The position numbers were made by a program, and so were the translations under genes. This document shows, piece by piece, positions 12,150 through 29,345 of a DNA stretch of 64,000 nt. Position 1 is the stretch's first letter; each line of letters opens with the position of its first letter. The DNA is from an uncultured Gemmatimonadales bacterium (GTDB taxonomy: Bacteria > Gemmatimonadota > Gemmatimonadetes > Gemmatimonadales > GWC2-71-9), in contig CAVVKJ010000010.1 in assembly GCA_963748815.1 (NCBI GenBank), positions 160,001 to 224,000 of the forward strand, written 5' to 3'. The notes beneath the pieces are model-generated. The model had not been told where the DNA came from. It did not search any database and saw nothing but the letters and a program-made list of their open reading frames with translations.

Positions 12150-12154
12150 CGAGC

Positions 12155-13194: not shown

Positions 13195-13241
13195 GTCGTC
13201 ATCTCCGATGCTCAATCAACAGTCGCGTCGCGTCGCTTCAA

Positions 13242-13300: not shown

Positions 13301-13315
13301 GCCGCCCCCGCCATG

Positions 13316-13351: not shown

Positions 13352-13358
13352 GTGTGGG

Positions 13359-13610: not shown

Positions 13611-13716
13611 ACGACGCTCCTGTGAGGGGAAAACTCTGCGGCCTCAGGGGCCCGTCAGCCCGGAAGCGGGAGAATGGTACCGCGGTGGCGCCCGGAACAC
13701 CAGACGGGCGTCGAGC

Positions 13717-14169: not shown

Positions 14170-14210
14170 CGGAGCTTCCTCGGGCGGAGGGGTCGGACGG
14201 GATGCCGGGG

Positions 14211-14714
14211 TCACTCAGGCCGTTCGGGCCAGTGCGCATCGGGGCTGGCCGGCGCCGCCTGATCGACGCCGAGCCGGTGCGGCGCCACTTCCGCGTGAAT
14301 GAAGTTTTCAGGGGGGACGGGACTCCCCGCAAGCCGCCGAAGCAGTGCCAGCTGGCCGACATGCGTCATCGTGTCCGCCAGCGGCCCCTGCAACAGTTGC
14401 TCCGTGGAGATGCTGCAGGGAGGGGTGCCGGCCCTGATCAGCTCCCCGACCGCTTCAAGCTGGGTGTGGAAGCGGAGGACTTCGGCCGCGAAAGTGGGGA
14501 GCGGTTCCGGAATCCGTGGATAGGCACCCCCCCGAAAGAGGGTCTCGGTGTAGCCGAGGACGCTGGTCATGTGGCGAAGCAGTTCGACGGGAGTCCGGGC
14601 CTGCTGACCGGCAGAAAAGTTGAAATATGAGTCCGGGGCGCCTCGCAGCGCCTTCTGGCTCCGGTAGGCGATGGCAGCGAGGAAGTGGAGCAGCAGGTCA
14701 CGATCCCGATCCAT
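14211..14714 (-). CDS. DinB-like protein
   Basis: TPVELLRHM and [17 protein letters not shown] motifs; ATG 14714 with GGAG RBS. Confidence 0.75.
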
Positions 14715-14734: not shown

Positions 14735-14821
14735 AGTGAACGAATCTGTCGCCCAGCGGAGCGGCGCTCGGTTCGGCTGCCACCGCGCACGCCTGCTCCG
14801 TCGACAGCAAGCTGGTTAAGC
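14735..14821 (-). repeat. Degenerate attC site
   Basis: Minus strand GCTTAAC-CAGC...CTGTCG...CGACAG-ATTC-GTTCACT; TAA stop of the 14816 ORF lies inside R''; R' decayed. Confidence 0.55.
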
Positions 14822-15232
14822 CGCGCTTCCAGGGAGCCCCGATAGGGTGACCAACTCGTAGGACCCCTGGGTGGCCTCGATGTGAATCTTGAGAACGTGA
14901 GGCGTCCCGTCGAGCCGGACGTGCAGTTCGCCCTCCTGGACAGGCACGCGGCCGATATCGAGCGCCGACATGACCTTCAGCCGGTTGATGAAGGCACCGA
15001 ACACCTGCCCTGGAAGCTGGGCGACGACAACCCATTGGGAAGCGATTTCATATTCAACATCGCCGAGCTGGGGGTCTGTCGGCACCAGGCGGACCCTCCG
15101 CGCCTGGCTTCGGAAGGCGTCCGCGAGGAGGGCATTGCAGAGATTGGCGATCGCGGGGAGGCCCTCAAGGGGCGTGTCGAGATCGTATTCGCGCCGGAAG
15201 AGGTGTGCCCCGGCCTCGCGGGCTGGACGCAT
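14816..15232 (-). CDS. Stand-alone PilB/GspE N2-domain-like protein (no ATPase domain)
   Basis: NALLADAF..., FINRLKVMSALDIGRVPVQEG resembles SRLKVM..LDI.E.R.PQDG of secretion ATPases. Confidence 0.7.
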   Translation of the reverse strand: MRPAREAGAHLFRREYDLDTPLEGLPAIANLCNALLADAFRSQARRVRLVPTDPQLGDVEYEIASQWVVVAQLPGQVFGAFINRLKVMSALDIGRVPVQEGELHVRLDGTPHVLKIHIEATQGSYELVTLSGLPGSAA

Positions 15233-15252
15233 GGATCACTCCTGGAAACGCA

Positions 15253-15363
15253 AGAGAATGAATGGCGAACCCGCTGCGAGGGCGCTCACGGCAGCCGCCG
15301 CGCGACTGAGCAGTAAAGGCGGCGGCGGACGGCGCCCTCGACGGCGGCATGCGCTGGTTAGGC
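15253..15363 (-). repeat. Degenerate attC site (long family, R' lost)
   Basis: Homologous to family (GAATGGCG...GCTGCGAGGGCGCTC...CATGCGCTGGTTAGGC) but shortened and without the GTT core at 15253-15259. Confidence 0.8.
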
Positions 15364-15387
15364 AGCGACCATGGCGGACCATGACTG

Positions 15388-15939
15388 TCACTCCATGACC
15401 AGTTCGTCGAGCAATTTACGGCCGGCTGGACGGGTGAGTACGTGCGCCACATCGTAGCCTGTACTGGTCCCTTGCCACCGGAGATCGCCGCGCTTGTCGA
15501 TCACATAGCTGGTTGGAATGCCGGTTACCACGTAGCTCCGTCCGAACTCACCGCCCTGGTCCATGGCCACGTCGATGCCAGTTACACCGACATCGGCTAG
15601 GAATGCCCTCACCTGAGAGCTATCTGCCATCTCTTCAAGGGCGACGTGGAGCACTTCGAGACCTCGGCCTCGGTAGGCATCGGCCAGTGTCTCGAGGGCC
15701 GGCATGGAGCTTCGGCAATTCGCACAAGAACGGGCCCACGCCTCGATGATTAACACATGTCCACGATACTTCGCGAGGCCGACAGTCTCGTGTGGGGCGG
15801 CCAGAAGAGGCAGGGCGAAAGAGGGCGCGGTGGCATCCTCTTCGAGTGGGTGAGCGTTCTGGTAACTCCGGACTTGGAGGTACACGATGCCGCTCGCGAC
15901 AATGAGGAGGGTTGTAGCCAGAGGGGATGGCATGCGCAT
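15388..15939 (-). CDS. TlpA/ResA-like thioredoxin (cassette)
   Basis: WARSCANC CxxC motif, MPALE, GIPTSYVIDKRG; N-terminal TM; start ATG 15939. Confidence 0.88.
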   Translation of the reverse strand: MRMPSPLATTLLIVASGIVYLQVRSYQNAHPLEEDATAPSFALPLLAAPHETVGLAKYRGHVLIIEAWARSCANCRSSMPALETLADAYRGRGLEVLHVALEEMADSSQVRAFLADVGVTGIDVAMDQGGEFGRSYVVTGIPTSYVIDKRGDLRWQGTSTGYDVAHVLTRPAGRKLLDELVME

Positions 15940-15957
15940 TGGCTCTCCCTTGTCGCT

Positions 15958-16085
15958 GCCTAACGAATGGCGAATCAGCTGCGAGGGCGCTCGCGGCAGC
16001 CGCCGCGCGACCTCGGACTCAGTATAAGGCGCGGCGGCTGCCGCAGATAGAGCGCGCCCTCGTCTGCTGCATGCGCTGGTTAGGA
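15958..16085 (-). repeat. attC site (128 bp family)
   Basis: GCCTAAC...GTTAGGA, long imperfect palindrome. Confidence 0.92.
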
Positions 16086-16100
16086 CGGTGCGGTCCACCA

Positions 16101-16409
16101 TTACCCGGCCTTCTCGTAGACCGGTACCTCACGCTCCAGCCGTGAGCCCAGGCGGTCCCGCTCGACATCCAGGTCATAGGCCGCCTGCAGGTTTAGCCAA
16201 AACCGGTCAGACGTACCAAAGAAGCGAGCGAGGCGGAGGGCGGTATCCGCGCTCACCCCACGCGTTCCGTGTACGATCTCATTGATCCGCCGCGCCGGCA
16301 CCGAGAGGCTCTTCGCCAAGCGATACTGCGTCAGCTCCAGCGGCGCCAGAAACTCCTCGGCGAGCACCTCGCCGGGGTGGACGGCAGCCAGTCGCTTGCG
16401 AGTTGTCAT
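16101..16409 (-). CDS. higA: HigA antitoxin (XRE HTH)
   Basis: HPGEVLAEEFL, RINEIVHG.RGVSADTALRLARFFGTS..FWLNLQ. Confidence 0.95.
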   Translation of the reverse strand: MTTRKRLAAVHPGEVLAEEFLAPLELTQYRLAKSLSVPARRINEIVHGTRGVSADTALRLARFFGTSDRFWLNLQAAYDLDVERDRLGSRLEREVPVYEKAG

Positions 16410-16418
16410 CAGGCCCTC

Positions 16419-16700
16419 CTAGTGATAATCGACCATCTCGACCTGGCGCGCTTCCCCGTCTTTCCAGGTGAAGCAGAGCCGCCATTGGTCATTGACCCGA
16501 ATGCTCCATTGGCCGGCGCGATTCCCGCTGAGCTTCTCGAGCCGGTTGCCGGGGGGTACCCGCAGGTCGTCGACCCGAGTGGCGGCATCCAGCATCCGGA
16601 GCTTCCGTAGGCCGGCGCGCTGGACATCCGGGCCCCATCGCTTGACGGGCTCCCGGGCAAATAGCCGCTCGGTGTCCTTGTCACGGAAGCTGCGGATCAC
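16419..16700 (-). CDS. higB: HigB toxin (RelE/ParE superfamily)
   Basis: MIRSFRDK.TE, PPGNRLEKL.G.RAGQWSIRVNDQWRLCF, VDYH. Confidence 0.95.
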   Translation of the reverse strand: MIRSFRDKDTERLFAREPVKRWGPDVQRAGLRKLRMLDAATRVDDLRVPPGNRLEKLSGNRAGQWSIRVNDQWRLCFTWKDGEARQVEMVDYH

Positions 16701-16735
16701 GGATGCATAGTAACGCGGCGCGTTACTAGTGTCAA
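16701..16735 (-). promoter_or_regulatory. higBA promoter with overlapping operator; probably leaderless mRNA
   Basis: TTGACA(16735-16730)-N17-TACTAT(16712-16707)-6 nt-GTG; palindrome TAGTAACGCG-G-CGCGTTACTA at 16708-16728. Confidence 0.85.
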
Positions 16736-16752
16736 GAGGGAGGAATGGCGCA

Positions 16753-16824
16753 GCCTAACGAATGGCGCATCAGCGGCTGCCGCAACTAGAGCGCGCCCTC
16801 GCCAGCTGCATGCGCTGGTTAGAC
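16753..16824 (-). repeat. attC site with internal deletion (72 bp)
   Basis: Both R boxes kept; one inner arm and the loop missing; toxin stop TAA inside R'' GTCTAAC. Confidence 0.85.
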
Positions 16825-17121
16825 GCCTTCCGGCGCCTCGGGCTCAGTGGCCAATTGGGCGCTGTGCCATACGCCCACAACCCAAACCGTGGTGCCTTGG
16901 ACTCGGTAGAAAAACCGATAGGGTCGGACGATCACCTCGCGGTAGGGCAGGCCACGAAACTCGGGAATGCGCCGTCCTGACTCGGGGAACTTCTCCAGCC
17001 GACTCAGCGACTTACGTGCCCGAGTGTGAAAGCGACGCGCGGCAGCGGGGCGATCGGCGAGGATGTAGGCGATGACATCGAGGAACTGCCGGTCGCCCGA
17101 CGGGGTGAAGCGCACCTTCAC
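16819..17121 (-). CDS. RelE/ParE family toxin
   Basis: MKVRFTPS, LEKFPESGRRIPE, YREVIVRPYRFFYRV. Confidence 0.9.
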   Translation of the reverse strand: MKVRFTPSGDRQFLDVIAYILADRPAAARRFHTRARKSLSRLEKFPESGRRIPEFRGLPYREVIVRPYRFFYRVQGTTVWVVGVWHSAQLATEPEAPEGV

Positions 17122-17399
17122 GCGTTGGCGTCCCGCAGCATCTGCTCGGCCTCGGCAAAGACAGTCGCGAGCTCACGGCCCTTACCCTTGGCGATCTCCC
17201 GCTCTCCAGACGCGAGGATACGAAGAATCTCGCGCTCCCGCTCACCCAACTCGTAGGCTTCCATGCTGAGCATGACGGCGGCGGCCCGACCACGCTGGGT
17301 GATCACCACGGGCTCGCGGGACCGGCGGACGCGATCGAGAGCACCGGCCGCATCCTGGCGGAGGTCGGTAATCGGAATGATGTCGGGCATCTTGGGCAT
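17118..17399 (-). CDS. Phd/YefM family antitoxin
   Basis: IPITDLRQ, EPVVITQRGRAAAVMLSMEAYE; GTGA overlap with the toxin. Confidence 0.92.
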   Translation of the reverse strand: MPKMPDIIPITDLRQDAAGALDRVRRSREPVVITQRGRAAAVMLSMEAYELGEREREILRILASGEREIAKGKGRELATVFAEAEQMLRDANA

Positions 17400-17410
17400 G
17401 GCGGTGGCAC

Positions 17411-17457
17411 CTGTTAGATGTACGTCTAACAGTACTACACGACGATCGGAGGCGCAA
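17411..17457 (-). promoter_or_regulatory. TA promoter and operator palindrome
   Basis: TTGCGC(17457-17452)-N17-TACTGT(17434-17429); palindrome CTGTTAGA-N6-TCTAACAG at 17411-17432. Confidence 0.7.
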
Positions 17458-17505
17458 GAAGGAAAGTGGGGAAGCCCGGGCGGGTTGGGAACTGGACGGA
17501 AGTGC

Positions 17506-17633
17506 GCCTAACGAATGGCGCATCAGCTGCGAGGGCGCTCGCGGCAGCCGCCGCGCATCCTCGTAGTCAGTATAAAGCGCGGCGGCTGCCGCAGATAGAG
17601 CGCGCCCTCGACTGCTGCATGCGCTGGTTAGGC
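17506..17633 (-). repeat. attC site (128 bp family)
   Basis: GCCTAAC...GTTAGGC. Confidence 0.93.
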
Positions 17634-17653
17634 GGCAATCTGCCAGTGAGGAA

Positions 17654-18454
17654 TCAAGGTAGGTCCCACCGTGCTGGGTTCTCGACCGGCAAAACCCCCG
17701 GCTGTCGCAGATCAACATTTTGGCGAAGAAGTAGCCAGGTGGTCGCAGCACCACGAGGGTCCGATGCCCCCCGGACATTAAGTGTGTACACCGCCGTAGG
17801 TAGGCTCGACAAAACCGCCCGCCAATAGAGGCAGCTTGTCGCGTTGCCGATCAATTCCTGGTTCTTATTAATGATATCCAACACAATTCCTGACCCAACT
17901 CGGTACGCACGGCCATTCGCCTCGACCGGCGTCACACCGCTCGACCAGTACCCAGTGACGGTGATGCTGGTCGGAGATGCTATGACCGAATCAACTCCTC
18001 CACAGGATGCACGCTGAGGCGGGGCGCTGGTCTCGAAGCGAAGGACTACGGGAGAAGAATCCTTCTCGGCAGGCGCTCTCCCGATAAGGATGAGAGTCCA
18101 GGCGTCAAGGCGCATGGTTACGGCGATTGAATCGCGGCGCCCCGAGACAATGGTCACAGTGTCGGTTGTACGGGAGAAGTAGGGATACTGTGCTACCAGG
18201 AGCACTGTAGTTGGCGGTAGGGCGGTTAGGAGAAACGACCCATCCGCCGCAGTATTCGTCTGCAGGATCAGGCGATTGGGGTCGTGCGGAAGACGAACCG
18301 TGACATACACGTTGGCGAGAGGCGCTCCGGTGGTATCTCGGACCACGCCGGCGAGGCTCCCCGGAGGCTGCCCATCGAGCGAAGTGCTCTGGCAGATGGC
18401 GGCGTGAGGAGATAGCGTTGCCAGCGCGAACAGGAGTTTCACAATGTGGCGCAA
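17654..18454 (-). CDS. Secreted protein with carboxypeptidase-regulatory-like domain (cassette)
   Basis: Signal peptide; GSLAGVVRDTTGAPLANVYV...TNTAADGSFLL. Confidence 0.75.
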   Translation of the reverse strand: MRHIVKLLFALATLSPHAAICQSTSLDGQPPGSLAGVVRDTTGAPLANVYVTVRLPHDPNRLILQTNTAADGSFLLTALPPTTVLLVAQYPYFSRTTDTVTIVSGRRDSIAVTMRLDAWTLILIGRAPAEKDSSPVVLRFETSAPPQRASCGGVDSVIASPTSITVTGYWSSGVTPVEANGRAYRVGSGIVLDIINKNQELIGNATSCLYWRAVLSSLPTAVYTLNVRGASDPRGAATTWLLLRQNVDLRQPGVLPVENPARWDLP

Positions 18455-18473
18455 GAATAGTTCCTCGATTGCC

Positions 18474-18602
18474 GCCTAACGAATGGCGCATCAGCTGCGA
18501 GGGCGCTCGCGGCAGCCGCCGCGCGACCTCGCTATTCAGTATAAAGCGCGGCGGCTGCCGCAGATAGAGCGCGCCCTCGTCTGCTGCATGCGCTGGTTAG
18601 GC
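18474..18602 (-). repeat. attC site (128 bp family)
   Basis: GCCTAAC...GTTAGGC, 129 bp. Confidence 0.93.
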
Positions 18603-19097
18603 GGCAGCGTCACCAGTCGAGGTCACGGAGCGCGCAAGTCCGGACGATCAGAGTACGCCCAGATCAGCGACGGGCACGGCGATAAGCGACGATGCGCCAG
18701 TCCCTCAGAGCTGGCCCGATTCTGAACGCGAGTCGACGTCCACGAGGCGGCAAGCGCGACTCGACAGGTGTCGCACTTGGGGGCCGACTGATGACGGCAC
18801 GCCGACGAACTCATCCTCGGTCCACGCAACGGCCGATGGAGGCGTCACGTCTGCTCATGCGTGCCGACACGTGTGACTGTGCTGCTACTGGTGCAGAGCG
18901 TGTGCGGAAGCGGCGCGCTGCACGCGGGACCAATGACGCAGGCCGGCGATCCATGGCGCCGACGCGAAGGCGCAGATCCTGGCGAGCATCGCGAGGAACG
19001 AGCCGCAGGCATGCCGACCGCACAGCTGAAGCCCTGATGCGTCGGGTCGCGGCATGCGATGTGCATCGCGTTCGGCATGTCAGTCGGTGCGCTGTCC
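18603..19097. other. Apparently gene-less cassette body
   Basis: About 495 bp between two intact attC sites; only short, unconvincing ORFs. Confidence 0.6.
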
Positions 19098-19225
19098 GCC
19101 TAACGAATGGCGCATCAGCTGCGAGGGCGCTCGCGGCAGCCGCCGCGCGACCTCGCAGTCAGTATAAAGCGCGGCGGCTGCCGCAGATAGAGCGCGCCCT
19201 CGACAGCTGCATGCGCTGGTTAGGC
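19098..19225 (-). repeat. attC site (128 bp family)
   Basis: GCCTAAC...GTTAGGC. Confidence 0.93.
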
Positions 19226-19577
19226 GGCACGGCGACCGGGCATAGACTCAACCAGCGGGACCCAGGAGGACCGTGCTCCTAGGTCGAGCGGGTTGATGCA
19301 ACCTTCGAACGTTGGGGTCGGCTTTGTGCTTTCACTCTGGCTAAGCGGAGAGCTGCCAGCTACTGCCTTCCGCGATTGGCCGTCAGGAGTCAATCGCAAG
19401 ACGGGCATGGGGCAGCTGGGCAGCGGTGGCGAAGATCCTTCGGGCCAGCGAGTCGAGCGCGAAGGGAGTCATTCCCGAAGTGGGGCGAGAGGATCTTGGG
19501 GTGCAGCCTGAGCAGCAAGTCGTGAGGTCCCAAGGACGGCCAGCGCTACGAACGGTTGCGATGAATGGCGAATGCAT
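19220..19577 (-). pseudogene. Disrupted small secreted-protein gene (cassette)
   Basis: Frame ending in R'' reads FVALAVLGTSRLAAQA...*...CPMPV...GCINPL; internal TGA at 19471-19469; ATG 19577 out of frame. Confidence 0.5.
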
Positions 19578-19731
19578 ATTCAGGTCCTCACCGAGGAGGG
19601 TACTGCAGTGGCGCAAGAGCGCGGACTCAGTCAAGGGCCTTGATGCGCAACGGCCTTGGCTCGTCGCAGTCGTTGTTGAGGCACTGAAGCGTGGTCGAAG
19701 CAATATGACATCACATGAAGCCGTTGTGTCC

Positions 19732-19859
19732 GCCTAACGTACTGCGCATCAGCTGCGAGGGCGCTCGCGGCAGCCGCCGCGCGACCTCGCCAGTAGTATC
19801 AGGCGCGGCGGCTGCCGCCGCAAGAGCGCGCCCTCGACAGCTGCATGCGCTGGTTAGGC
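19732..19859 (-). repeat. attC site (128 bp family, GATACT-loop variant)
   Basis: GCCTAAC...GTTAGGC; stop of the upstream ORF in R''. Confidence 0.93.
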
Positions 19860-20198
19860 GGTACCTGTTGGCAACCCCTTGGGTCGGAGCCGCCGTTCAT
19901 TCACCAGAAATGCGATATTGACGAGCGACATCACGGTGATCCCGGTGGATACACTAACGGGGATCAGATTGAGCATGGCGAGACCGCAGAAGATGTCGGC
20001 CAGTGTCGGAAAAAGCATCCTCGTGGCGGGTACCGAGCCGCGGAGGAGAAACATGGCAATGCCACAGAGCAATACGACCGCGCCCAAGAACATCGTGGCC
20101 TCCGTGGCACGCCCGCTCGTATAGAGGTATCGCGCCAGCAGCAACGGCACGGCCAGTAGAACGACAAGAAGCGCGAGTCGACCGGCAGTGGATCTCAT
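19854..20198 (-). CDS. Small membrane protein (about 4 TM; cassette)
   Basis: Hydrophobic; GGAG RBS; TAA overlaps R''. Confidence 0.7.
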   Translation of the reverse strand: MRSTAGRLALLVVLLAVPLLLARYLYTSGRATEATMFLGAVVLLCGIAMFLLRGSVPATRMLFPTLADIFCGLAMLNLIPVSVSTGITVMSLVNIAFLVNERRLRPKGLPTGTA

Positions 20199-20254
20199 GG
20201 ACGTCTCCCCATACGAGGGTAGGCCTGCGCGAGCAACCCTTTGCGCGGCCCCGA

Positions 20255-20473
20255 CTACAGCACTTCCCTAGCCCCTGAGCCCTTCTTCGTACGAGCAGTG
20301 AGCCATCCCGCAATTGCGAGCGCCAACAATCCTTGTCCGATAACCGCGTAGATCCGCGTTGCGCTGGCCTCAGGATGGCTATCGGGTGTGATCAGCCAGT
20401 AGACCGCCTGGGCCGCCATCATCAACAGCATGCCGACCAGTACTCCAGACTTGAAGCCATTCCGAGTCTGCAT
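20255..20473 (-). CDS. Small membrane protein (2 TM; cassette)
   Basis: AAGGAG RBS directly after R'; two hydrophobic helices. Confidence 0.72.
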   Translation of the reverse strand: MQTRNGFKSGVLVGMLLMMAAQAVYWLITPDSHPEASATRIYAVIGQGLLALAIAGWLTARTKKGSGAREVL

Positions 20474-20492
20474 GACGCTCTCCTTGGTATCC

Positions 20493-20552
20493 GCCTAACG
20501 CTCCGGTTCAGTGGCGGCGCGCAGCGCCGTCCACTGCAACCGGTTGTTAGCT
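20493..20552 (-). repeat. Short 60-bp attC (59-be-like), different family
   Basis: Minus strand AGCTAAC-AACCG-GTTGCAGT...ACTGAAC-CGGAGC-GTTAGGC with two unpaired bases in the R''/L'' arm. Confidence 0.9.
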
Positions 20553-20577
20553 GGCGCATAAAGTGATAGGCGTTCGT

Positions 20578-21825
20578 TTAGTTAGTAGGAACCAGAGACA
20601 AGGCGCCCAAAGATTCGAGGCAGCCGCGATGAGCGTCTTCGGAGCGGCCGCGTCCTCTGCGAGATTGTCTGCGACCCTCCTCAACTCTTCGAGTCGCTCG
20701 GTTACGATACGTCTCGCGATACCTGGAATCTGATGGAAGGGGAACATGCCTTGACATTGCGAACGACGGTCCCGCCCGCTCACCATGCCCGCTCTCGCCT
20801 GCCGGAAGAAGGGTCAGCGCCTCACCCAGTGGTTTCACCACGACGGGCATTCCGACGACCGCCACGTGAGCAAACCACTCCACTTGCGCGCGGCTGGCCG
20901 TTGGGTTACTAAATACATACTGCAGCATTCGCAGTAAGAGCATGTAAATCTCATCAAACAGCTCCGACACAGCGCACGCATACGGATCCGTAAGACGCGT
21001 GGTCACGCACAAGGGATCATTGCCATAGTCGCCGCGCGCGCGCGCAATCGGGTTGATCACAGCTAGCCTCGCCGGCTCGAATACGGCGGGCTCTTCTGCA
21101 ACCGCAGCCATTTCGTCCTCGTACTCTTTGAGTACTTCGATGAAGGCGCCGTAGTGGGAGTTCACAGGGTCAGCAGGATTTCCTTCACCCTGCTCAATGA
21201 TCATGTCTATCGCTGCAAATGCGCTCTCGCGATCGACGACGCTGATGACGTCAGGAAAATCGACCAGATCACGGCCGACTTGCAGGTCGGGGTTGCCGAT
21301 GAACAGCGCGTCCGATGCTATGGTCTCAAACCCCCTGCGAATGAGCGAGTACAGTTCGCCGACGCTCGTATACGTGGGGTTTGACATTTCGGTCTGCGGG
21401 ATCCCCAAATCTGTTCCGCATGCCTCCTCCGCTGGCAGGGTCTGCGGTCGTTCGTAGAACACGAACCTGCGCATGGCGTGTAGCCCAAAGGGTTCCAGCG
21501 ACAGATTCGCTTGAATAGGATAGTACTTAGCGTTCTGAGGGAAGTTCGGGCGGAGGTAGTACGGAGTGCCACCAATAGCCGACAACAAGTTCCACGCCTG
21601 GCCAAGGTGCAGCATCTCCTCGGACGCGACGAAGTAGATTTGAGCTGCCCACTTCCGCACCAACTGAACCTGCTTCCAAGTGATATTGCCCTCACTTAGG
21701 TCCTGCTTCAGTGTAAACGCACTGTAGAGATAGGAACACGTCAGCCCGTGCTCCAACTCGCATGCTTCTGAGAGCAGGCTAAGCAAGTCGGAGCGAGTAC
21801 TCGGCACGCGCAGACGTCGACTCAT
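20578..21825 (-). CDS. Ferritin-like domain protein (type related to the VioB/RebD C-terminal domain); likely frameshift near 20725
   Basis: EACELEH...YLYSAFTLK, EEMLHL, IIEQGEG, SHY motifs; ATG 21825 overlaps the GMC stop (ATGA). Confidence 0.82.
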   Translation of the reverse strand: MSRRLRVPSTRSDLLSLLSEACELEHGLTCSYLYSAFTLKQDLSEGNITWKQVQLVRKWAAQIYFVASEEMLHLGQAWNLLSAIGGTPYYLRPNFPQNAKYYPIQANLSLEPFGLHAMRRFVFYERPQTLPAEEACGTDLGIPQTEMSNPTYTSVGELYSLIRRGFETIASDALFIGNPDLQVGRDLVDFPDVISVVDRESAFAAIDMIIEQGEGNPADPVNSHYGAFIEVLKEYEDEMAAVAEEPAVFEPARLAVINPIARARGDYGNDPLCVTTRLTDPYACAVSELFDEIYMLLLRMLQYVFSNPTASRAQVEWFAHVAVVGMPVVVKPLGEALTLLPAGESGHGERAGPSFAMSRHVPLPSDSRYRETYRNRATRRVEEGRRQSRRGRGRSEDAHRGCLESLGALSLVPTN

Positions 21826-23504
21826 GGCGACCCTCGCTTCAAGTCTTGGAGAGACCTTTCGATGGTCGAAAGACTTCTCAGTAGGACTGCAATGGCGGTA
21901 AGTGTGGGATTCGCGGTCCCAGACGTGGGAAAGACCGATGACCCCACAATGTAAAGGTTTCGATGATCGTGGCTTTGACACATCGGCGTGACAACCGAGC
22001 TTCTTGCATCGTTGCCCATGCGGCACGTGCCGATGATGTGATTGGCGCTCGAATACGCGCTCGGGTCTGGTGGAAAGACCGTTTCAAGTGCTCCAAGTCG
22101 TTGGAACATCTCTCTGATCACTCGCTGTGCTATTGCAAATGAGTCTGTCTGGTAGGAAGACGGCCTGAAAGCGATCTTCGGTTTTGGGATGCCCATCTCA
22201 TCCAGATCGTTTGAGAGCGTTACCTTATTGTCCCGCCCGGGGAGTGTCTCGGTCGAATAGCTGATTCGAAATTGGGCCGACAGCCTACTCCGTATTCTCT
22301 CCCGGAGTACGCGGCCGAAGAGAGGGGGCGCGTTGCCGCCCTGACGCACGAGTCTCGTCAGTGTATCGTAGGGTCCTCGCACCAGCCCCCAGCCATCATT
22401 ACCAATCGACATGCGGAACGCTGAGTGGCGCGCCCGAAACGCACCGTCGCGGAATGAATCGATACCTGATGTCGTCGGTGGCCCGCGAAACGGGTAAACG
22501 GGAAACGGCAGTATTGCCGCAGCTTGCCCTTGCAGATGATCCATCAGGCATTGGCCGACATACCCGCTTGAGTTGGCGACACCGGTAGGTGAATTGATGC
22601 CGGCTGATAGCAGTAAGATCTTCGGCGTTTCTATGGCGTGTGCAGCCAGAACGACGAGCCGCGCTCGGATAGTTGCCCGCGCTAGATCGGGCCAGCGTAG
22701 GTACTCAACCGCCTGGATCAGTCTGTCTTCGCCCACTAGGAGCTTTGTGACAACACAACGTTCCATCAACACGGCACCTGCAGCCACCGCCTTCTTAACA
22801 TGCACCGTTGCGTCATACTTCGCTCCGATTGGGCAGATCGGGTCGCAAGTGGAATTGCCAGCACAGGGAGGCCTCCCATCGTATGGCTGTGAATTGCGCG
22901 CCTGTGGTGTCCCCATTATTCGGAGTGGGACCCCTTCGACAATCAAGCCATTGATGCCGTCCGCTACCCGGCCGTCCCCATAGCTCGCCCACACCTCGGA
23001 CATGGGAAACGGTTTGCTCCTAAATGCACCAAAGTAGTTTTGCCACTCTTCATGGTTGCCCGAAACGCCCAACTCGTGTTCAGCCTCGCCGTAATACTCC
23101 TCTAGATCTCCATACCCGATCGGCCAATCGACCCCAATCCCGTAAGTTGAGTGCAGCAGAAAGTCGCTAGGAATAAACCTCGGAACATTTCCCCTCCAAT
23201 GCCATGTCGATCCGCCAGTTCGCCTCGTGTACGTGGACTTGAAAGCGGCGTCTGGCTGGTCGTAGTAAGGATCACTACCGCCATCTGGGCTCGGGACCCA
23301 CTTCGACGCTTCCGTTCCTCTGTACGGGGAGTTCATCGTCTTCTTTGACGCCGTAACGTAGTTGGCTACGAGCGTCGCGCGCGCTGGACCCGTCTCGCCC
23401 GCTTCCACGATTACAACTCGGTGACCTCTCGACGCGAACCGGTGCGCGGCAATAGCACCGCACACACCCGAGCCGATCACGACTATGTCAGTTTCTTCGA
23501 TCAT
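21822..23504 (-). CDS. GMC oxidoreductase (FAD sugar dehydrogenase large-subunit type)
   Basis: IGSGVCG, GGSTWHW, CAGNSTCDPICP Cys cluster, VGQCLMDH, NHIIGTCRMG, TANPTLT. Confidence 0.92.
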   Translation of the reverse strand: MIEETDIVVIGSGVCGAIAAHRFASRGHRVVIVEAGETGPARATLVANYVTASKKTMNSPYRGTEASKWVPSPDGGSDPYYDQPDAAFKSTYTRRTGGSTWHWRGNVPRFIPSDFLLHSTYGIGVDWPIGYGDLEEYYGEAEHELGVSGNHEEWQNYFGAFRSKPFPMSEVWASYGDGRVADGINGLIVEGVPLRIMGTPQARNSQPYDGRPPCAGNSTCDPICPIGAKYDATVHVKKAVAAGAVLMERCVVTKLLVGEDRLIQAVEYLRWPDLARATIRARLVVLAAHAIETPKILLLSAGINSPTGVANSSGYVGQCLMDHLQGQAAAILPFPVYPFRGPPTTSGIDSFRDGAFRARHSAFRMSIGNDGWGLVRGPYDTLTRLVRQGGNAPPLFGRVLRERIRSRLSAQFRISYSTETLPGRDNKVTLSNDLDEMGIPKPKIAFRPSSYQTDSFAIAQRVIREMFQRLGALETVFPPDPSAYSSANHIIGTCRMGNDARSSVVTPMCQSHDHRNLYIVGSSVFPTSGTANPTLTAIAVLLRSLSTIERSLQDLKRGSP

Positions 23505-23509
23505 CTCGA

Positions 23510-23923
23510 TCAGTTCTCCGGCGGGTAATGCCAGTACCCAAAGTAGCCGCCCGACAACGCTGGCGGATGGGCCCCGATGACGTCCCAGAGCAGTGCCCGG
23601 AAGTGATGCTCGGGCTTCCCGAATATCAACTCGATTTGCCCCTTGTCATCAAATGCCATGGTCGCAGAGCTGTACCAAAGGACGATGATCTGCTCCGCTA
23701 GGCTTCTTAGGACTGGGTCAGAGGCAAGGGTCGCCGCTATCGACTCATCATCGATCGTGCCTAGTGCCTTTAGCTCGCCGTAAGAGGCAAGAAGTCGATT
23801 TAGCACCCTCTCCAACCCGAGACTGCGCAGTCGCTCCTCATACTCCGAGGCAAGGTCGGCGGGAAGGTCATCAACGCCCGTAAACGCTGTGGACAATTCG
23901 ATGAAGAGAGATCTAGTCGACAT
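23510..23923 (-). CDS. Sugar dehydrogenase small (gamma) subunit-like protein, no Tat signal
   Basis: FIELSTAFTG...IIVLWYS...ALLWDVIGAHPPALSGGYFGYWHYPP; directly upstream of the GMC gene. Confidence 0.75.
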   Translation of the reverse strand: MSTRSLFIELSTAFTGVDDLPADLASEYEERLRSLGLERVLNRLLASYGELKALGTIDDESIAATLASDPVLRSLAEQIIVLWYSSATMAFDDKGQIELIFGKPEHHFRALLWDVIGAHPPALSGGYFGYWHYPPEN

Positions 23924-25616
23924 CGAAAAGCTCCCAGAAGCTATATGCGGTCATGCCGGTAGGAGGTGCTTCACCTGGTATGGCGATTCGCACGCGGGGG
24001 CGCGGGCGAGCATCATCTAGTTTTGCCGACTCATCCGCAATTCTCCAGTCGTGCTCGAATAGCTGTTGGTAATAGGCGGCTACATCTTCGTGCTCGACGA
24101 CAAGGCTCGCATCTCTATTCGATGTCATTCCGGCGTTAGTAAAGTTGTGACTGCCAATCAGGACCGTCCGGCCATCGGCGATGATTCCCTTGTTATGGCA
24201 TCCGGGCTGAAAACGAATCTTGTCGACGTCGAATCCTTTGGCGCGATACACGTCGAGCCGATCTTCGACATTGTCGAATGGAAACACGCGTAGAAGCAGC
24301 CTAAAGTCTCTGATTTCGCGAGACTTCGCCGCAAGAAGCCGAGTGAACTCTGTGTAGTTATTGTCCTGATCTTCCTCACTCTTCAGGAAGGCAAGACTCT
24401 GATTCTGGACCAACAACTGGCTCTGTGCCTGCTGTACCAGCGTCATTACCGCTTCGATGTACGCATCCCCTGGCGTAAGCAGTGGCACGACTCGGTGTTG
24501 CCTATCTGCTGTAAAGAAGAATTCCGCCGGTGCGACGAACGTGTCATACGGGAACTCCTTCGGCGGCTGGTCGAGGAAGATCATGGGCCCCGCTGCCGCG
24601 ATGACGAACCTCGCGGGCGCGGCTTCACTCTGGGCAGCTCGGAGGTCTCTTTCGATGATCTCCGCCAAAGCGTCTGATGCGGCGGCGTGGTCACAGATCA
24701 CATGCCATTCACGGTTGCACTTTGGTAGACGCTCATTGGTGCGGTCAGCCCCTAGGGGATCGAGGTTTGGCTGATTCGAGGACTGCCAACTTCCGCTTGA
24801 AAGCCAGAAGGAACCACGGTCACGAACCGCCAACTTGATGTGGTAGTGAAATCCGCCGCGCATTGACGCGAACGAGTGATCGAAGCCGCTGCCAAAGCAC
24901 CTAGCAAATCTCTGCACATGCTCAGCCTCTGTGCGATCGAACTCCTTCATGCTCCCCTTTCCGCCGATCACCAGCCTGCTATCGAGTGTCAGCTTGAAAG
25001 TCTGTACACGACGGGCGACGTCCTGGCACAGCAGATCGCCAACGTGCGGAGCTGTTAACTCGTACATCCCAACAACTAATTCTTGTTGGGCGTTTCGGAG
25101 GAATTCGCGCAACCCCCTCCATCCTGCATCAGGGCTCGCGTGGCAAAGGAGCCTCAAGGGTCCTTGCAGTGGTTGCAGCGTTCCGTTGCCTCGCATCCGA
25201 TCGGCTAGCTCAGCGCGGCGTTCGCGCGCCGCGCGCGTAGCGCTCCTTGATCGCGGCGCGGGGACCCCAATCGCCTCCGGCAAGAACGGATACCCAAGCA
25301 GCGTCTCCAGTTCGGATAGCATTTCCTCATGTATGCCGTATTTGGCCGGCTGCGCAAACAGCGCCTTAAGGGGGCTCGCTTCGACCACGTCCACGTTCTC
25401 AGCTCCGAACAGGGTTTGCAGATCCTCTTCCGGCGCCAAAGAGCTCTGGCTAACCTTCCGCTCCACGGTGACCACGACAGTCGGCGTGTCCGCCACTGCG
25501 CGGCCACCTTGCTTTCGCACGCCTGGCTCCAAAGCAAGAACACCCGGCAAGCTCAGCGCGCGCGCCGCCTTGTCTCGCACGAGCGACCGCACGTAATCCG
25601 CCGTCCTAATCGTCAT
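23913..25616 (-). CDS. Phospholipase D superfamily protein (two HKD motifs; possible nuclease)
   Basis: YHIKLAVRD...SSGSWQSSN and CHNKGIIAD...IGSHN...NRDAS; extra N-terminal domain; no signal peptide. Confidence 0.88.
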   Translation of the reverse strand: MTIRTADYVRSLVRDKAARALSLPGVLALEPGVRKQGGRAVADTPTVVVTVERKVSQSSLAPEEDLQTLFGAENVDVVEASPLKALFAQPAKYGIHEEMLSELETLLGYPFLPEAIGVPAPRSRSATRAARERRAELADRMRGNGTLQPLQGPLRLLCHASPDAGWRGLREFLRNAQQELVVGMYELTAPHVGDLLCQDVARRVQTFKLTLDSRLVIGGKGSMKEFDRTEAEHVQRFARCFGSGFDHSFASMRGGFHYHIKLAVRDRGSFWLSSGSWQSSNQPNLDPLGADRTNERLPKCNREWHVICDHAAASDALAEIIERDLRAAQSEAAPARFVIAAAGPMIFLDQPPKEFPYDTFVAPAEFFFTADRQHRVVPLLTPGDAYIEAVMTLVQQAQSQLLVQNQSLAFLKSEEDQDNNYTEFTRLLAAKSREIRDFRLLLRVFPFDNVEDRLDVYRAKGFDVDKIRFQPGCHNKGIIADGRTVLIGSHNFTNAGMTSNRDASLVVEHEDVAAYYQQLFEHDWRIADESAKLDDARPRPRVRIAIPGEAPPTGMTAYSFWELFDVD

Positions 25617-26476
25617 GGCCGCATCCTCGATGGGATTAGGTCATCCTGTCCGAGCTTCAGAGCCGTCAACGCGTCACGCAAGACGTCATAGAACTCAGTC
25701 GTGGTAGGCTCAAGGCCCTGCGTGTTTCCCCAGAAGATCTTTAACGCCTCAACCCCATCGGCGGTGTTCCCTGCGGTAACAATTGCTTCTTGAAGTATTC
25801 TGCGTTCTTCTACGTCGCGAATGGTGACTACAATTGGATCGCTCGGGATAGGCTTTGATCGAGCGACCCGGACTAAGACATCCTCGGCGTCTCCGTAACC
25901 AGGTTGTCTTGCGAGATCGATGATTACCCCGTCGTGGCCTGCTCCTAGATCGACCTTTCCTTCGTATACCGCCCGCGCTACTGTTTCGTGGCCCTTCAGG
26001 AACTCTATCCGGTTGAATGCGAATATCGGATGCATAGCAGCCTCCTTCAACATGAAGGCCGGAATCAGGAAGTTCGACGTTGAGTACGAGTGGCCGTAGC
26101 CGACAGACCGCCCAGCCGCATCCTGTAGGCTTCGAATCGCACTCTTCTTGTGCGCATAAAGCTGAGCAAAGTAGACCACGCCGACTTTGCCGTCGATAAT
26201 GCGCTTAGCGATCGCCACCGCTTCAGCATCCCCCGTTCGATTCCGCGCAAAGACGAATCCCAGAGGATTCATGAGCGCTATGTCCACCGCCCGTTCAGCA
26301 ACTTGATTAATCTGCTCTGGCACGTCGACGGGCGGCAGGAGACGGATCTCAGGGTTGTTTTGGCCGAGTCTTCTCAACTCGACCTCGACGAGTCGCGCAA
26401 ACTTTGCAATTTGGTCAGCGATCACGGTTTGCGGGACGTTCTGCGTTAACCATGGGTAGTAACTCAATCGGTACAT
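25613..26476 (-). CDS. PhnD/phosphate-phosphonate binding-protein fold, lacking a signal peptide
   Basis: VDIALMNP, IRSLQDAAG, STSNFLIP, GHETVARAVYEGKVDLG, IPSDPI; GGAGG RBS. Confidence 0.85.
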   Translation of the reverse strand: MYRLSYYPWLTQNVPQTVIADQIAKFARLVEVELRRLGQNNPEIRLLPPVDVPEQINQVAERAVDIALMNPLGFVFARNRTGDAEAVAIAKRIIDGKVGVVYFAQLYAHKKSAIRSLQDAAGRSVGYGHSYSTSNFLIPAFMLKEAAMHPIFAFNRIEFLKGHETVARAVYEGKVDLGAGHDGVIIDLARQPGYGDAEDVLVRVARSKPIPSDPIVVTIRDVEERRILQEAIVTAGNTADGVEALKIFWGNTQGLEPTTTEFYDVLRDALTALKLGQDDLIPSRMRP

Positions 26477-26507
26477 GATGTCCTCCAGATTGCGAGTCCG
26501 TTGTGCC

Positions 26508-26634
26508 AGCTAACGACTGGCGCATCAGCTGCGAGGGCGCTCGCGGCAGCCGCCGCGCGACCTCCCAGCAGTATCAGGCGCGGCGGCTGCCGCCGCAAGA
26601 GCGCGCCCTCGACTGCTGCATGCGCTGGTTAGGC
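26508..26634 (-). repeat. attC site (128 bp family, GATACT-loop variant)
   Basis: AGCTAAC...GTTAGGC, 127 bp. Confidence 0.93.
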
Positions 26635-26641
26635 GGCTGGT

Positions 26642-27106
26642 TCACTGAGGAAGCGGCTTCCCAGGACCTAACAGGGCTCGAACCGCCTCGCCCTGACCTG
26701 ACTCAAATATCGGGGAGCACCAACCGATTGGAATGCTGTCGGCGTCGTCGGGCACCAGGAGCAAATAGGTCTTGCCTGTAAGGAGGGTTCGATCGCAGGA
26801 ATCGCCCGGCGTGTGATTGGCGTCATACACAACAATTGTGGCTCGCGGCGCCCCCTTCCAGACTCGGCTGACGAGCATGACGGCATGGTCGAAGCCTGAA
26901 AACGTATGGACCCTCCCAAACACGATTGCCTCGCCAGAGAGTAGGTAATGCGCGACGATGGTGCCTTCCACGATCAACCCGGCCGAGTCAATGAGCGCCT
27001 GAGGCGGTAGGCGGCGGTCACAAACACAGCGCCCGCCATCGGCGCATTCGGCGGACGGCGAAGCGCCGGCGAGCAAGAGTGGGATGAGCAGGAGTGTGTG
27101 CTTCAT
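26642..27106 (-). CDS. Secreted protein, bacterial TIMP/NTR-like (cassette)
   Basis: Signal peptide; CVC, LIVEGTIV, VSRVWKG, SC, GKTYLL, CS pattern. Confidence 0.65.
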   Translation of the reverse strand: MKHTLLLIPLLLAGASPSAECADGGRCVCDRRLPPQALIDSAGLIVEGTIVAHYLLSGEAIVFGRVHTFSGFDHAVMLVSRVWKGAPRATIVVYDANHTPGDSCDRTLLTGKTYLLLVPDDADSIPIGWCSPIFESGQGEAVRALLGPGKPLPQ

Positions 27107-27119
27107 GTTGTGCCAGTCC

Positions 27120-27248
27120 GCCTAACGAATGGCGCATCAGCTGCGAGGGCGCTCGCGGCAGCCGCCGCGCGACCTCGCATCTAGTATAAAGCGCGGCGGC
27201 TGCCGCAGACTAGAGCGCGCCCTCGACAGCTGCATGCGCTGGTTAGAC
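27120..27248 (-). repeat. attC site (128 bp family)
   Basis: GCCTAAC...GTTAGAC, 129 bp. Confidence 0.93.
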
Positions 27249-27260
27249 AGCGACGGCCAC

Positions 27261-27959
27261 CTATCTGGTCAACTGCCATCTAGTACAAACGTCGACGCTC
27301 ACTCTGACCTCGCCCGGCGTAAGATCTGCGATTGAGGAGCGCACCGACGAAGCACCGACCACCGTAATCTCAGAAACATTGACATTGCCGAAACGATCGA
27401 CAGTACACCGAGCCGTCGAGACGTCGAGCAGCAGCCCAAGCTGGCCTCCAGCAGCTTTTGCGAGCACAAGCGCATCTCGCCGGGCCGCATCGACTGCCTC
27501 AGCAAGTAGGCGCTCGCGTGCCACGGCGGCGCTATCAGATTCGAAGTCGATTCTGCTCACCTCGGTCGCGCCTGCCGCGAGGGCCGAATCGATCACCAGC
27601 CCTAGTCTGTCGAGTGGTTGGACAACGATAGTAATTGCTGCGGACGCCTGGTAGAAGAGCAGCTTTTGTGTTTCATAGTCTGAGTTACCACGAACCATGA
27701 ATGACACCAATTGAACTTGAGTGTCACTGAGGCCTTGCCGACGCATCGACTCCATGATCCGGCGCTGCCGCAGCCCATTCTCTGCGGATGCCTCGGAGGC
27801 TGAAGAGCCGCGCGTCTCAACCTCTAGGTGGACCTCAGCCCAACTTGGAGGCAGACTCGCTTGGCGGCTGCCCATCGTGGTGATGACGCTGGTCGGGACC
27901 TCCTGGGCCTGGGCACCAGCGGGGAGAAGCGTGGCCAGAATTAGAAGGGCGCTTCGCAT
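27261..27959 (-). CDS. SIMPL (DUF541) domain protein (cassette)
   Basis: Signal peptide; LGLVIDSALAAGATEV, LAEAVDAARRDA..LAKAAG..LG, LTPGEVRVSVDV. Confidence 0.88.
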   Translation of the reverse strand: MRSALLILATLLPAGAQAQEVPTSVITTMGSRQASLPPSWAEVHLEVETRGSSASEASAENGLRQRRIMESMRRQGLSDTQVQLVSFMVRGNSDYETQKLLFYQASAAITIVVQPLDRLGLVIDSALAAGATEVSRIDFESDSAAVARERLLAEAVDAARRDALVLAKAAGGQLGLLLDVSTARCTVDRFGNVNVSEITVVGASSVRSSIADLTPGEVRVSVDVCTRWQLTR

Positions 27960-27984
27960 AGTGGCTCGAGGTGATGAGGTCGCT

Positions 27985-28112
27985 GTCTAACGAATGGCGC
28001 ATCAGCTGCGAGGGCGCTCGCGGCAGCCGCCGCGCAGCCTCGCATCTAGTATAAAGCGCGGCGGCTGCCGCAGATAGAGCGCGCCCTCGACAGCTGCATG
28101 CGCTGGTTAGGT
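27985..28112 (-). repeat. attC site (128 bp family)
   Basis: GTCTAAC...GTTAGGT. Confidence 0.93.
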
Positions 28113-28152
28113 GGCGGGGCCGAACACTGAGCCGACTATCCCCGCCCCAGGG

Positions 28153-28632
28153 CTAGGGGGCGGCGCCCTGTGTGACAACATAGGAATTCGATGTCACTGT
28201 ACGCGGTGTGGATTCATAGAGGTACTGCCATTCCATCTTGATCCGATACGTCCCCGGCGCATCTGCCGCGTCCAAGGGAACCGGCGGCACGAGAGTGGAA
28301 CTCAGGGACTGGAGCACAAAGGGCTCATGCTCCGTCGGTTCGCAGACGACCGGGGGGAACGGTCCTGGCGCCCAACTCCCATCCAGCTGTTGCTGCTCCC
28401 ATCGAAGCACAGCGCTAAACGGGAACACATCCGAGAGGCAGAGCTGGAACTGAATGTCCACCGGAGTGGCATTCTGAAGTGTCAACTGCAAGGGCGTGTT
28501 GGGAGCACCTGGGACCATCACGTAGGTCTTGGCGTCCGTGGCGAGCGTAACGGTCCCCGAGGGATCCGTTGATGAACAGGCCACTTGGAAGCCCAGCAAC
28601 AGCAGAGAGGATGCTAGGTGGAATGGGCGCAT
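28153..28632 (-). CDS. Lipoprotein with Ig-like domain (first cassette)
   Basis: Lipobox QVAC; TLATDAKTY, PGTYRI, VTSNSYVV. Confidence 0.72.
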   Translation of the reverse strand: MRPFHLASSLLLLGFQVACSSTDPSGTVTLATDAKTYVMVPGAPNTPLQLTLQNATPVDIQFQLCLSDVFPFSAVLRWEQQQLDGSWAPGPFPPVVCEPTEHEPFVLQSLSSTLVPPVPLDAADAPGTYRIKMEWQYLYESTPRTVTSNSYVVTQGAAP

Positions 28633-28743
28633 GGGGGCAGCCTCTCGCGGTCGATGTTTGATGGCCTAGTGTCGGGGTCGGGGCAGATGCCGGCGAAGCG
28701 GGGATATCTGTACCACACCCACACGTCGGCAACGGGCCACGCC

Positions 28744-28870
28744 ACCTAACGTACATTGGACTGCAACCACTCAGAGGACGCCCCCGAGCAACCACTGCGG
28801 CCCGTTGCAGTCCAATCCAATGGTATGTGAAGGGGCGCGGTTTGGAAAGACTGCAACGACTGCAGCCTAA
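28744..28870 (-). other. Candidate attI-like site heading the array
   Basis: G/TTAGGT core at 28750-28744 matches the first cassette's R''; upstream sequence is not the attC family; GACTGCAAC occurs three times (two direct, one inverted). Confidence 0.5.
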
Positions 28871-28955
28871 TACGTAAACGCTGCAGCGGCCGAGTACCCA
28901 AATAACGGCGAAGCGACCGCCGCCTGCCGACCCGACTCCCCGACCCATCAAAAGG

Positions 28956-29345
28956 TCAATCGGCCTCGGCCAGCTGATACTCAAACTGGTAGCTGTGCTT
29001 CCCACCCTCGACAATAATCTGCATCGATCCTGACAACCCCACCAACCCGCCGGTCCCCGAGTCAGGCACCACCGTCAGCACGAGGCTCGGTTCCCCCCGG
29101 GTCATCGTCCCGCTGTGCTGCAGGACAAACGACCCGTCGCGCCCGCCGAGCGTCCCGGTGACCTGCTCCATGGCCACATACCCCGCCGAGCCCTTCACCG
29201 TCGTATTGAACGCCAGCATGTGCCCCTTGCTGGTGGCCTCGAGGTCGCCGTGAAACGTCTTGTCGAGGGCCAGGCTCCCGATGGGGGAGTCCTCGGCGAG
29301 CGGCTGCGGGGTCATCTTGACATTAAAGGGACCGCTGGCGGTCAT
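28956..29345 (-). CDS. DUF3224 family protein
   Basis: KTFHGDL, SAGYVAME, GSFVLQH, VVPDSGTG.L.GLSG. Confidence 0.9.
   Translation of the reverse strand: MTASGPFNVKMTPQPLAEDSPIGSLALDKTFHGDLEATSKGHMLAFNTTVKGSAGYVAMEQVTGTLGGRDGSFVLQHSGTMTRGEPSLVLTVVPDSGTGGLVGLSGSMQIIVEGGKHSYQFEYQLAEAD

Follow-up and report, generated by a model that had tools for sequence, protein, structure and literature searches.

Can an array of gene cassettes that has no integrase gene beside it still capture and express genes? The question is raised by a 64,000-nt stretch of DNA (hereafter the window) from an uncultured Gemmatimonadales bacterium, positions 160001 to 224000 of contig C10 in genome G000, whose assembly of 3.16 Mb in 19 contigs is 86% complete. 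The organism is placed in the Gemmatimonadales by the names found in the 90% cluster of its isocitrate lyase. The window contains an integron-like array of 12 minus-strand cassettes, within which the G+C content falls from about 0.69 in the flanks to 0.55 to 0.65. With 12 attC recombination sites, where two suffice for the definition, and no integron integrase gene (intI) nearby, the array belongs to the attC site clusters without an integron integrase (CALINs); it is not a complete integron, since intI is absent beside it and the sole integrase (IntI) of the genome is encoded on another contig, C8. A reading of this DNA made without database searches (the sequence-only reading) was right to describe it as integrase-less but overlooked its head: with an attI-like insertion site and a promoter-like element of its own, the array is more than a plain CALIN. 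We consider it likely (probability about 0.7) that the array is a satellite platform for capture and expression, served in trans by the single C8 integrase. CALINs are about as common as complete integrons (2,961 versus 2,760; PMC9024848), and the expression and adaptive value of their genes have been stated to be unknown (PMC4889954).

The array is built from a homogeneous attC family. Eight sites, whose positions and near identity agree with the sequence-only reading, start at 15958, 17506, 18474, 19098, 19732, 26508, 27120, and 27985, with lengths of 128, 128, 129, 128, 128, 127, 129, and 128 nt, respectively, and pairwise identities of 88 to 97% (mean, 93%). Each consists of R'' (GCCTAAC), a 5-nt spacer, L'' (CATGCAGC), a stem-loop, L' (GCTGATG), an 8-nt spacer, and R' (GTTAGGC), and thus shows the R'' (RYYYAAC), R' (GTTRRRY), and L''/L' inverted repeats of attC sites within 55 to 141 nt (size and spacer limits from PMC7370490). 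The 8-nt L'-R' spacer, which had been singled out as unusually long, is present in all eight sites (CGCCATTC in six, CGCCAGTC and CGCAGTAC in the other two), but we rejected it as a novelty: it is a lineage trait that adds little, because spacers of up to 10 nt are already in print (PMC7370490). The 5- and 8-nt spacers partly pair, leaving a 3-nt bulge. The bottom strands fold into hairpins of -50 to -58.5 kcal/mol, with z scores of -5.3 to -9.3 against 60 dinucleotide shuffles. The hairpin has extrahelical bases and is supported by covariation: among 20 attC sites from G000 and its relatives, 11 of 32 pairs changed on both sides (0 of 500 shuffles), although the structure was derived from one member and hence leans towards it. 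The first extrahelical base in the window is C; in attC sites it is usually G.

Four variants that had also been noticed complete the set, namely the internally deleted 72-nt site of cassette 9 (z, -0.9), the foreign 60-nt site of cassette 4 (z, -7.2), the 106-nt site with a broken R' of cassette 11 (z, -2.4), and the decayed site of cassette 12 (z, -1.5); their coordinates are listed in the table. Together the 12 sites delimit the 12 cassettes, about the number previously estimated, and in nine of these the start and the R'' of the cassette share a complementary stretch of at least 9 contiguous bases. Stop codons lie within R'' at 14816, 16819, 19854, and 19220, as had been pointed out, except that the frame ending at 19220 is a mere tail of a broken open reading frame (ORF). 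A hydrophobic N terminus is found in five of the six single-gene cassettes with an intact ORF, in line with the earlier remark that most of them encode secreted or membrane proteins. Rfam returned no match in the window. The profile search found no IntI, PF00589, or TIGR02249 match there, so the absence of an integrase from the 64 kb holds.

The proposal that an integrase might act in trans gained a candidate from the whole-genome profile search, which returned a single intact IntI, on C8 (TIGR02249, 421.6 bits; cut-off, 265). This tyrosine recombinase of 342 amino acids retains intact catalytic motifs at R146, K171, H277, R280, G302, and Y312, which correspond to IntI1 numbering, and its best match in a plasmid collection is on a Gemmatirosa replicon. 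Its gene is transcribed towards the main array, where 53 profile matches of the window's attC family extend over 45 kb, a count that bears out the suggestion of a lineage-specific family. The genes upstream of intI are common to 11 of the 12 genus genomes with an intI match, the twelfth contig being too short, and attI in the genus lies no further than about 70 nt after the intI stop codon.

Several side observations concern this locus. The intI gene of G000 (C8:50253-51281) is 98.3% identical in nucleotides to that of G014, whose neighbouring gene is 89.4% identical, and 77 to 80% identical to those of other relatives, though their neighbouring gene is 87 to 93% identical; intI thus seems to have been swapped between species at the main locus. 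The attI box occurs twice, at a distance of 30 nt, within the first codons of this gene (5' end, C8:51142-51254); IntI may bind there, which would serve autoregulation or looping.

The head of the window array (28744-28901) is where the locus departs from a cluster of attC sites. The attI crossover motif matches two places in the 3.16 Mb, the main attI and 28746-28764 in the window, and across the 17 genus genomes searched the reversed pattern gave one match versus 23 for the real one. Given its homology to the intI-adjacent attI of 12 genus genomes and the anatomy of its junction with the first cassette, the head qualifies by sequence as an attI site. Its simple site shares with all genus heads a distance of only 4 nt between the L and R boxes. 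Upstream, TTTCCA and TACCAT at a distance of 17 nt form a putative cassette promoter (Pc): of 18 heads chosen for their -35-like part, 17 have TAnnnT at exactly this distance, compared with 7 of 2,152 TTTCCR sites in the genome, and the spacing equals that of the main attI. Further copies of the crossover box at about -57 and -112 would represent IntI-binding half-sites. When the window head was compared with four other heads of its type, box and promoter positions were better conserved than the rest (129/156 versus 213/468 matches; circular-shift P = 0.007, an optimistic value because the box positions were chosen partly with these alignments in view). From this sequence evidence, we infer that IntI would bind and recombine at the head and that the promoter would be active.

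These features also bear on the idea that a cassette was inserted at a chance chromosomal (attG) site and that others piled up on its attC, the head being an accidental look-alike. Insertion at attG sites has been shown experimentally and proposed for small CALINs (10.1101/2022.09.11.507474), and G000 itself has lone or decayed attC-like sites where no head was detected (C8:139500-139624, C10:853128-853234, and C14:154488-155405). Such seeding would, however, leave a first junction unrelated to attI, whereas the head is homologous to attI, its crossover motif is confined to two genomic places, its promoter spacing is that of the main attI, and about 150 nt of it align collinearly with heads from an unrelated tRNA-Leu locus (G008 and G012). 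The look-alike is therefore largely refuted and hardly credible.

Four of the 12 cassette bodies (cassettes 3, 5, 9, and 10) have copies in the main array with identities of 95.4 to 99.8%, in line with the recent activity that had been suspected; the other eight have no copy elsewhere in the genome (E = 1e-10). The order differs: cassette 5 precedes cassette 3 in the main array (ranks 13 and 14), whereas in the window cassette 3 comes first and the 6-kb cassette 4 separates the two; cassettes 9 and 10, neighbours in the window, have ranks 2 and 52. Cassette 9 is closer to a copy in G016 (98.4%) than to that in its own genome (95.4%). From these comparisons, the cassettes evidently moved one by one and not as a block duplication.

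This bears on whether the array could be a piece of the main array split off by rearrangement, or a mosaic of assembly or strains that placed C8 cassettes on C10. The incomplete, 19-contig assembly leaves room for such an error, as does a 3.2-kb tandem duplication (98.9% identity) upstream of intI (C8:52330-58775), which is single in relatives and either real or an assembly artefact, and no contig from the four sequencing runs compared spans the whole array (of the runs listed, none contains more than 0.48 of the sampled words). Yet the array lies inside the 1.18-Mb contig C10, 175 kb from its start, and both of its junctions are bridged by independent contigs, the one between DUF3224 and the head in run X2 (28764-29189) and the left end in runs X1 and X5. 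Moreover, a split-off piece would be a contiguous block in main-array order, whereas this array has its own head, eight unique cassettes, and the shared ones out of order, and two other species, G002 and G013, carry a head with cassettes at the same DUF3224 locus. We regard a split or mosaic as highly improbable.

Integrons are usually portrayed with a single docking site, but heads without intI are not peculiar to this window. Pattern and model searches recovered 15 of them at eight loci in 9 of the 17 genus genomes: after DUF3224, near a Ser/Thr kinase gene, before trxB, after tRNA-Leu, after aceA, and at three others (gene names are taken from ORF translations, except DUF3224, which comes from a family scan). 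G013 has three of them; of the 15, two sit at the ends of contigs, where no cassette can be seen, and the crossover box is damaged in three. A degenerate candidate in G006 (C124) was excluded from the count of nine genomes, and two pattern hits (G002:C2:382 and G006:C210:2468) were discarded, being decayed ends of attC sites within arrays. Beyond the genus, G129, G069, and G049 of the same family and G303 of another each combine one full IntI with one to three remote heads, G270 has heads but no full IntI, and G259 has the main site only; at the family level, 20 of 56 pattern hits were examined, selected for their attI-like look. Two of the family-level hits (G149:C117 and G150:C64) yielded nothing convincing. 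The tRNA-Leu head is followed 3.4 kb downstream by a phage-type integrase ORF (L087:7678-9048 in G008:C3, named from its translation), which hints that an integrated island brought in some of the heads.

How such heads may arise is seen in one of their two types. Model R1, which describes the long type (about 255 nt), matches complete integrons at both the 5' and the 3' ends of intI and does not match the window head at E = 0.001. In local alignments the long modules join about nt 6 to 140 of intI, at 60 to 65% identity, to about nt 975 to its end; the best scores of the remnant are 44 to 75, versus shuffled maxima of 30 to 39, in seven of nine modules, those in G005 and G055 being weak. By these alignments, the long heads are integrons from whose intI about 830 nt have been cut out. 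Similar breakpoints recur across several loci and in at least two genera, and two heads in G049 show different deletions that removed intI only in part. Identities of up to 90 to 94% between the Pc-attI part of the long modules and the present-day main attI suggest that this part has been kept up to date. The best-kept part of the deleted modules corresponds to the two box copies at the 5' end of intI. The window's type bears no trace of intI, and no intact integron with it turned up among 151 order genomes, so its descent from a once complete integron is proposed by analogy only. Weak matches of its model, R2, in family f2 belong to a different attI, and a weak tblastn match to intI 3 kb upstream in L044 (E = 1e-4), in conserved host sequence, was taken as chance.

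The most serious alternative, although an unlikely one, is that the array is the decaying remnant of a second integron that lost its intI long ago, with attI and promoter now inert and cassettes shared through attC x attC events or RecA-dependent exchange between attC repeats. Several observations weigh against an active platform. The shared cassettes 3, 5, 9, and 10 are all internal, so that they need no attI: insertion by attC x attC or homologous recombination among the 128-nt repeats would account for them. The sigma-70 scan does not call the head promoter (8/12 matches), which leaves the promoter deduced from its conservation, and the head and the main attI have different L boxes (GCAGTCCAAT versus GCCGCCGAAT). 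No intI remnant was found upstream of the window head by tblastn, blastn, or local alignment (scores within the shuffled range), and among the 151 order genomes searched with model R2 there is no complete integron with exactly this head. Satellites in G002 (C3:172k), G016 (C1), and G003 (C6) are decaying, with R boxes damaged or lost; G002 has heads but no intI was found in its 90% complete genome, and intI carries frameshifts in G001 and G013. The head is missing after DUF3224 in six of the nine genomes in which this DNA was examined (G001, G005, G006, G007, G008, and G014): in G014 DUF3224 is followed at about 200 nt by a glyoxalase gene, and in G001, the nearest relative by aceA (91.6% identity), DUF3224 is truncated and there is no array. 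A remnant further agrees with the existence of deleted-intI derivatives, with an eroding array tail (two broken ORFs and three damaged attC sites), and with intI loss as a published route to CALINs (PMC4889954).

The first cassettes, however, are not easily explained in this way. In the three genomes with a head after DUF3224, G000, G002 (89% aceA identity), and G013 (84%), the first cassette differs and intI is absent, which places the captures after the loss of the integrase. The first junctions are clean G|TT crossovers, with 11 contiguous complementary nucleotides in the window; they are clean in two of these three species, and in 5 of 10 other heads with a first attC found, the junction is complementary at 13 of 13 positions. 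Since the attI side has no homology to attC, a clean first junction needs site-specific recombination, unlike the internal exchanges that a remnant would account for. In three of four runs (X1, X2, and X6), contigs carrying copies of cassette 1 (about 99% identical) diverge from the window within 7 nt of the crossover, which fits its sitting elsewhere in other strains. The preferential conservation of boxes and promoter also speaks against inert sequence.

We therefore favour the satellite platform, which may be pictured as follows. A Pc-attI module without an integrase gene, placed after DUF3224, heads the 12 cassettes. IntI made from C8 would diffuse to this second attI and insert circular cassettes there (attC x attI), and would excise or reorder others (attC x attC), so that cassettes pass between the two arrays. 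The putative Pc would provide a second place for expressing the first cassette or the first few, and the two toxin-antitoxin cassettes near the tail would stabilise the array. Such satellites could form when intI loss spares the docking site and promoter: a Pc-attI module can outlive intI because intI points towards the array and Pc-attI lies at and beyond its 3' end, which suggests that co-oriented integrases should leave working satellites when intI is deleted. A broader and more tentative reading, which we hold to be somewhat less probable than its opposite, is that Gemmatimonadales run a multi-locus integron in which one integrase serves several integrase-less Pc-attI satellites maintained by selection, of which some are miniature integrons that arose by one old internal deletion of intI and have since spread to new loci. 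Each satellite would then be an extra first position, and several cassettes could be captured and strongly expressed in parallel.

Class 2 integrons can be served by another IntI in trans. Much of the setting is in print, including CALINs and the proposal of their mobilisation in trans, intI loss, conserved CALIN loci in Xanthomonas, co-oriented integrases, attG insertion, and attC spacers of up to 10 nt. Like the CALINs of PMC4889954 and PMC9024848, for which exchange in trans was proposed, the window has an attC array whose vicinity lacks intI while another part of the genome encodes IntI; in contrast to the split-off CALIN out of reach of Pc discussed in PMC4889954, this array comes with an attI-like site and a promoter-like element, and heads of this sort are found again at many loci. 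The C8 integron resembles the sedentary chromosomal integrons of Treponema with their inverted integrase (PMC3607928) in having intI directed towards attI, a long homogeneous attC array, and toxin-antitoxin cassettes, and its position shared by 11 of 12 relatives with intI is a further likeness to sedentary chromosomal integrons. The Treponema paper states one attI per integron, whereas here one intI coexists with two attI-like sites and with up to four in G013 and G303. Xanthomonas CALINs away from ilvD (10.1101/2025.06.18.660453) likewise recur at the same loci across species with one, often inactivated, intI locus, but in the available part of that preprint no attI or promoter is described at them. 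In class 2 integrons with a truncated intI2* and Pc inside attI2 (PMC8876359) and in delta-attI cassettes (PMC12901181), attI and Pc also persist without a working cognate integrase gene; these are clinical, mobile elements that retain intI in place or carry attI fragments within the array, whereas the present modules are chromosomal, dispersed, and without most or all of intI. At attG sites (10.1101/2022.09.11.507474) IntI also acts at a distant chromosomal place, but those sites are scattered and differ from attI in sequence and structure, whereas the window head is homologous to the attI of its lineage and reused. Our search, which covered few subscription journals and left supplements aside (including possibly relevant ones of the Xanthomonas and attG preprints), found no paper on dispersed chromosomal attI-Pc satellites or internally deleted mini-integrons.

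Satellites of this kind would escape current tools, since attI outside class 1 is poorly described and undetected by IntegronFinder, and attI and Pc are sought only by exact match to classes 1 to 3 (PMC9024848). If the case is general, many CALINs would be working capture-and-expression sites invisible to these tools, not silent remnants. For the question posed at the outset, whether an integrase-less array is still capturing and expressing genes, the locus offers a defined head of 160 nt, the cognate IntI, and the main attI as a control.

The features of the array and its flanks are listed in the table.

Table. Features of the window array and its flanks (window coordinates)
Feature	Position	Strand	Basis or remark
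DUF3224 gene, upstream flank	28956..29345	-	Pfam PF11528, E = 1e-40; head directly after DUF3224 in G000, G002, and G013
Terminator-like hairpin between DUF3224 and head	28907..28924	-	Pattern match only
Integrase-less head: promoter-like pair and attI-like site with repeated GCAGYCYAAT-type boxes	28744..28901	-	Motif, alignments, model R2
Upstream box ATTAGGCTGC (about -112), putative IntI-binding half-site	28862..28871	-	Likeness to R box
Putative Pc: -35 TTTCCA (28848-28843), 17 nt, -10 TACCAT (28825-28820)	28820..28848	-	Conserved spacing
Box ATTGGACTGC (about -57), putative IntI-binding half-site	28807..28816	-	Copy of crossover box
attI simple site: L box GTCCAAT, 4-nt spacer, G|TTAGGT with crossover at 28750/28749	28744..28764	-	Motif
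Cassette 1: lipoprotein-like ORF of 159 amino acids (28153-28632), attC 27985-28112	27991..28749	-	Start complementary to R'' over 11 contiguous nt
Cassette 2: SIMPL/DUF541 protein (27261-27959), attC 27120-27248	27126..27990	-	Domain search
Cassette 3: secreted protein of 154 amino acids (26642-27106), attC 26508-26634	26514..27125	-	99.2% to main-array rank 14
Cassette 4: five-gene unit of 6,015 nt, closed by foreign 60-nt attC 20493-20552	20499..26513	-	Domain search
Cassette 5: two small membrane ORFs (20255-20473, 19854-20198), attC 19732-19859	19738..20498	-	99.8% to main-array rank 13
Cassette 6: broken ORF, tail ending at 19220, attC 19098-19225	19104..19737	-	76% homologue in G008 main array
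Cassette 7: no clear intact ORF, attC 18474-18602	18480..19103	-	attC mapping
Cassette 8: secreted protein with carboxypeptidase-regulatory-like domain (17654-18454), attC 17506-17633	17512..18479	-	Domain search
Cassette 9: Phd-ParE toxin-antitoxin pair, deleted 72-nt attC 16753-16824	16759..17511	-	95.4% to main-array rank 2
Cassette 10: HigB-HigA toxin-antitoxin pair, attC 15958-16085	15964..16758	-	96.6% to main-array rank 52
Cassette 11: TlpA/ResA-like thioredoxin (15388-15939), degenerate attC 15258-15363	15264..15963	-	95.5% copy in G003 main array
Cassette 12: T2SSE N-terminal-like ORF (14816-15232), decayed attC about 14741-14820; fixed array tail	14741..15263	-	Domain search
Downstream flank: DinB/MST-like gene and glyoxalase gene	13717..14714	-	Domain search

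Cassette 4 is exceptional in size, the median spacing in the main array being 740 nt. Its genes encode a PhnD-like binding protein, a PLD protein, an FAD-SLDH-like small subunit, a GMC oxidoreductase, and a ferritin-like protein. The same five genes occur in identical order at metagenome locus L243 and in a different order at L273, with no attC found at the ends of the set, and GMC adjoins PLD in 12 of 80 loci; cassette 4 is a conserved operon that was captured whole. A defence role is unsupported, as only generic PLD matches below the cut-off were obtained. A search of genome contigs with its PLD gene found no relative, and one with its ferritin-like gene found one short contig; in the four runs cassette 4 was next to uncovered, and it was not used as evidence there. 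Cassette 8, by comparison, is present in contigs of all four runs with 0 to 11 differences. A homologue of cassette 12 lies near DUF3224 in G008, where no attC was detected.

Outside the array, small accessory-type genes, among them DUF4256, glyoxalase, and DinB-like ones, follow one another on the minus strand of the window at 7400-14714; their order differs from relative to relative, and they are possibly old cassettes stripped of attC. One weak attC-like match lies at 13235-13300. Repetitive extragenic palindromic (REP)-like repeats occur at 58761, 59341, and 61105, with a similar copy upstream of intI on C8. A small SEC-C gene (CPCGSG...KKCC; 13346-13610, minus strand) can be read through only if the frame changes by +1 three times, at TTT-TGA, CTT-CCA-C, and TTT-CAA; a single literature search on such frameshifting found nothing. 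All three changes are kept in eight of eight genus copies, with synonymous changes in each segment, and also in G117 of another genus, whereas G423, from another order, retains the first and the third and has the second in frame. By its sequence, this gene looks like a case of +1 frameshifting programmed at Phe/Leu codons, and it might serve to sense the state of tRNA.

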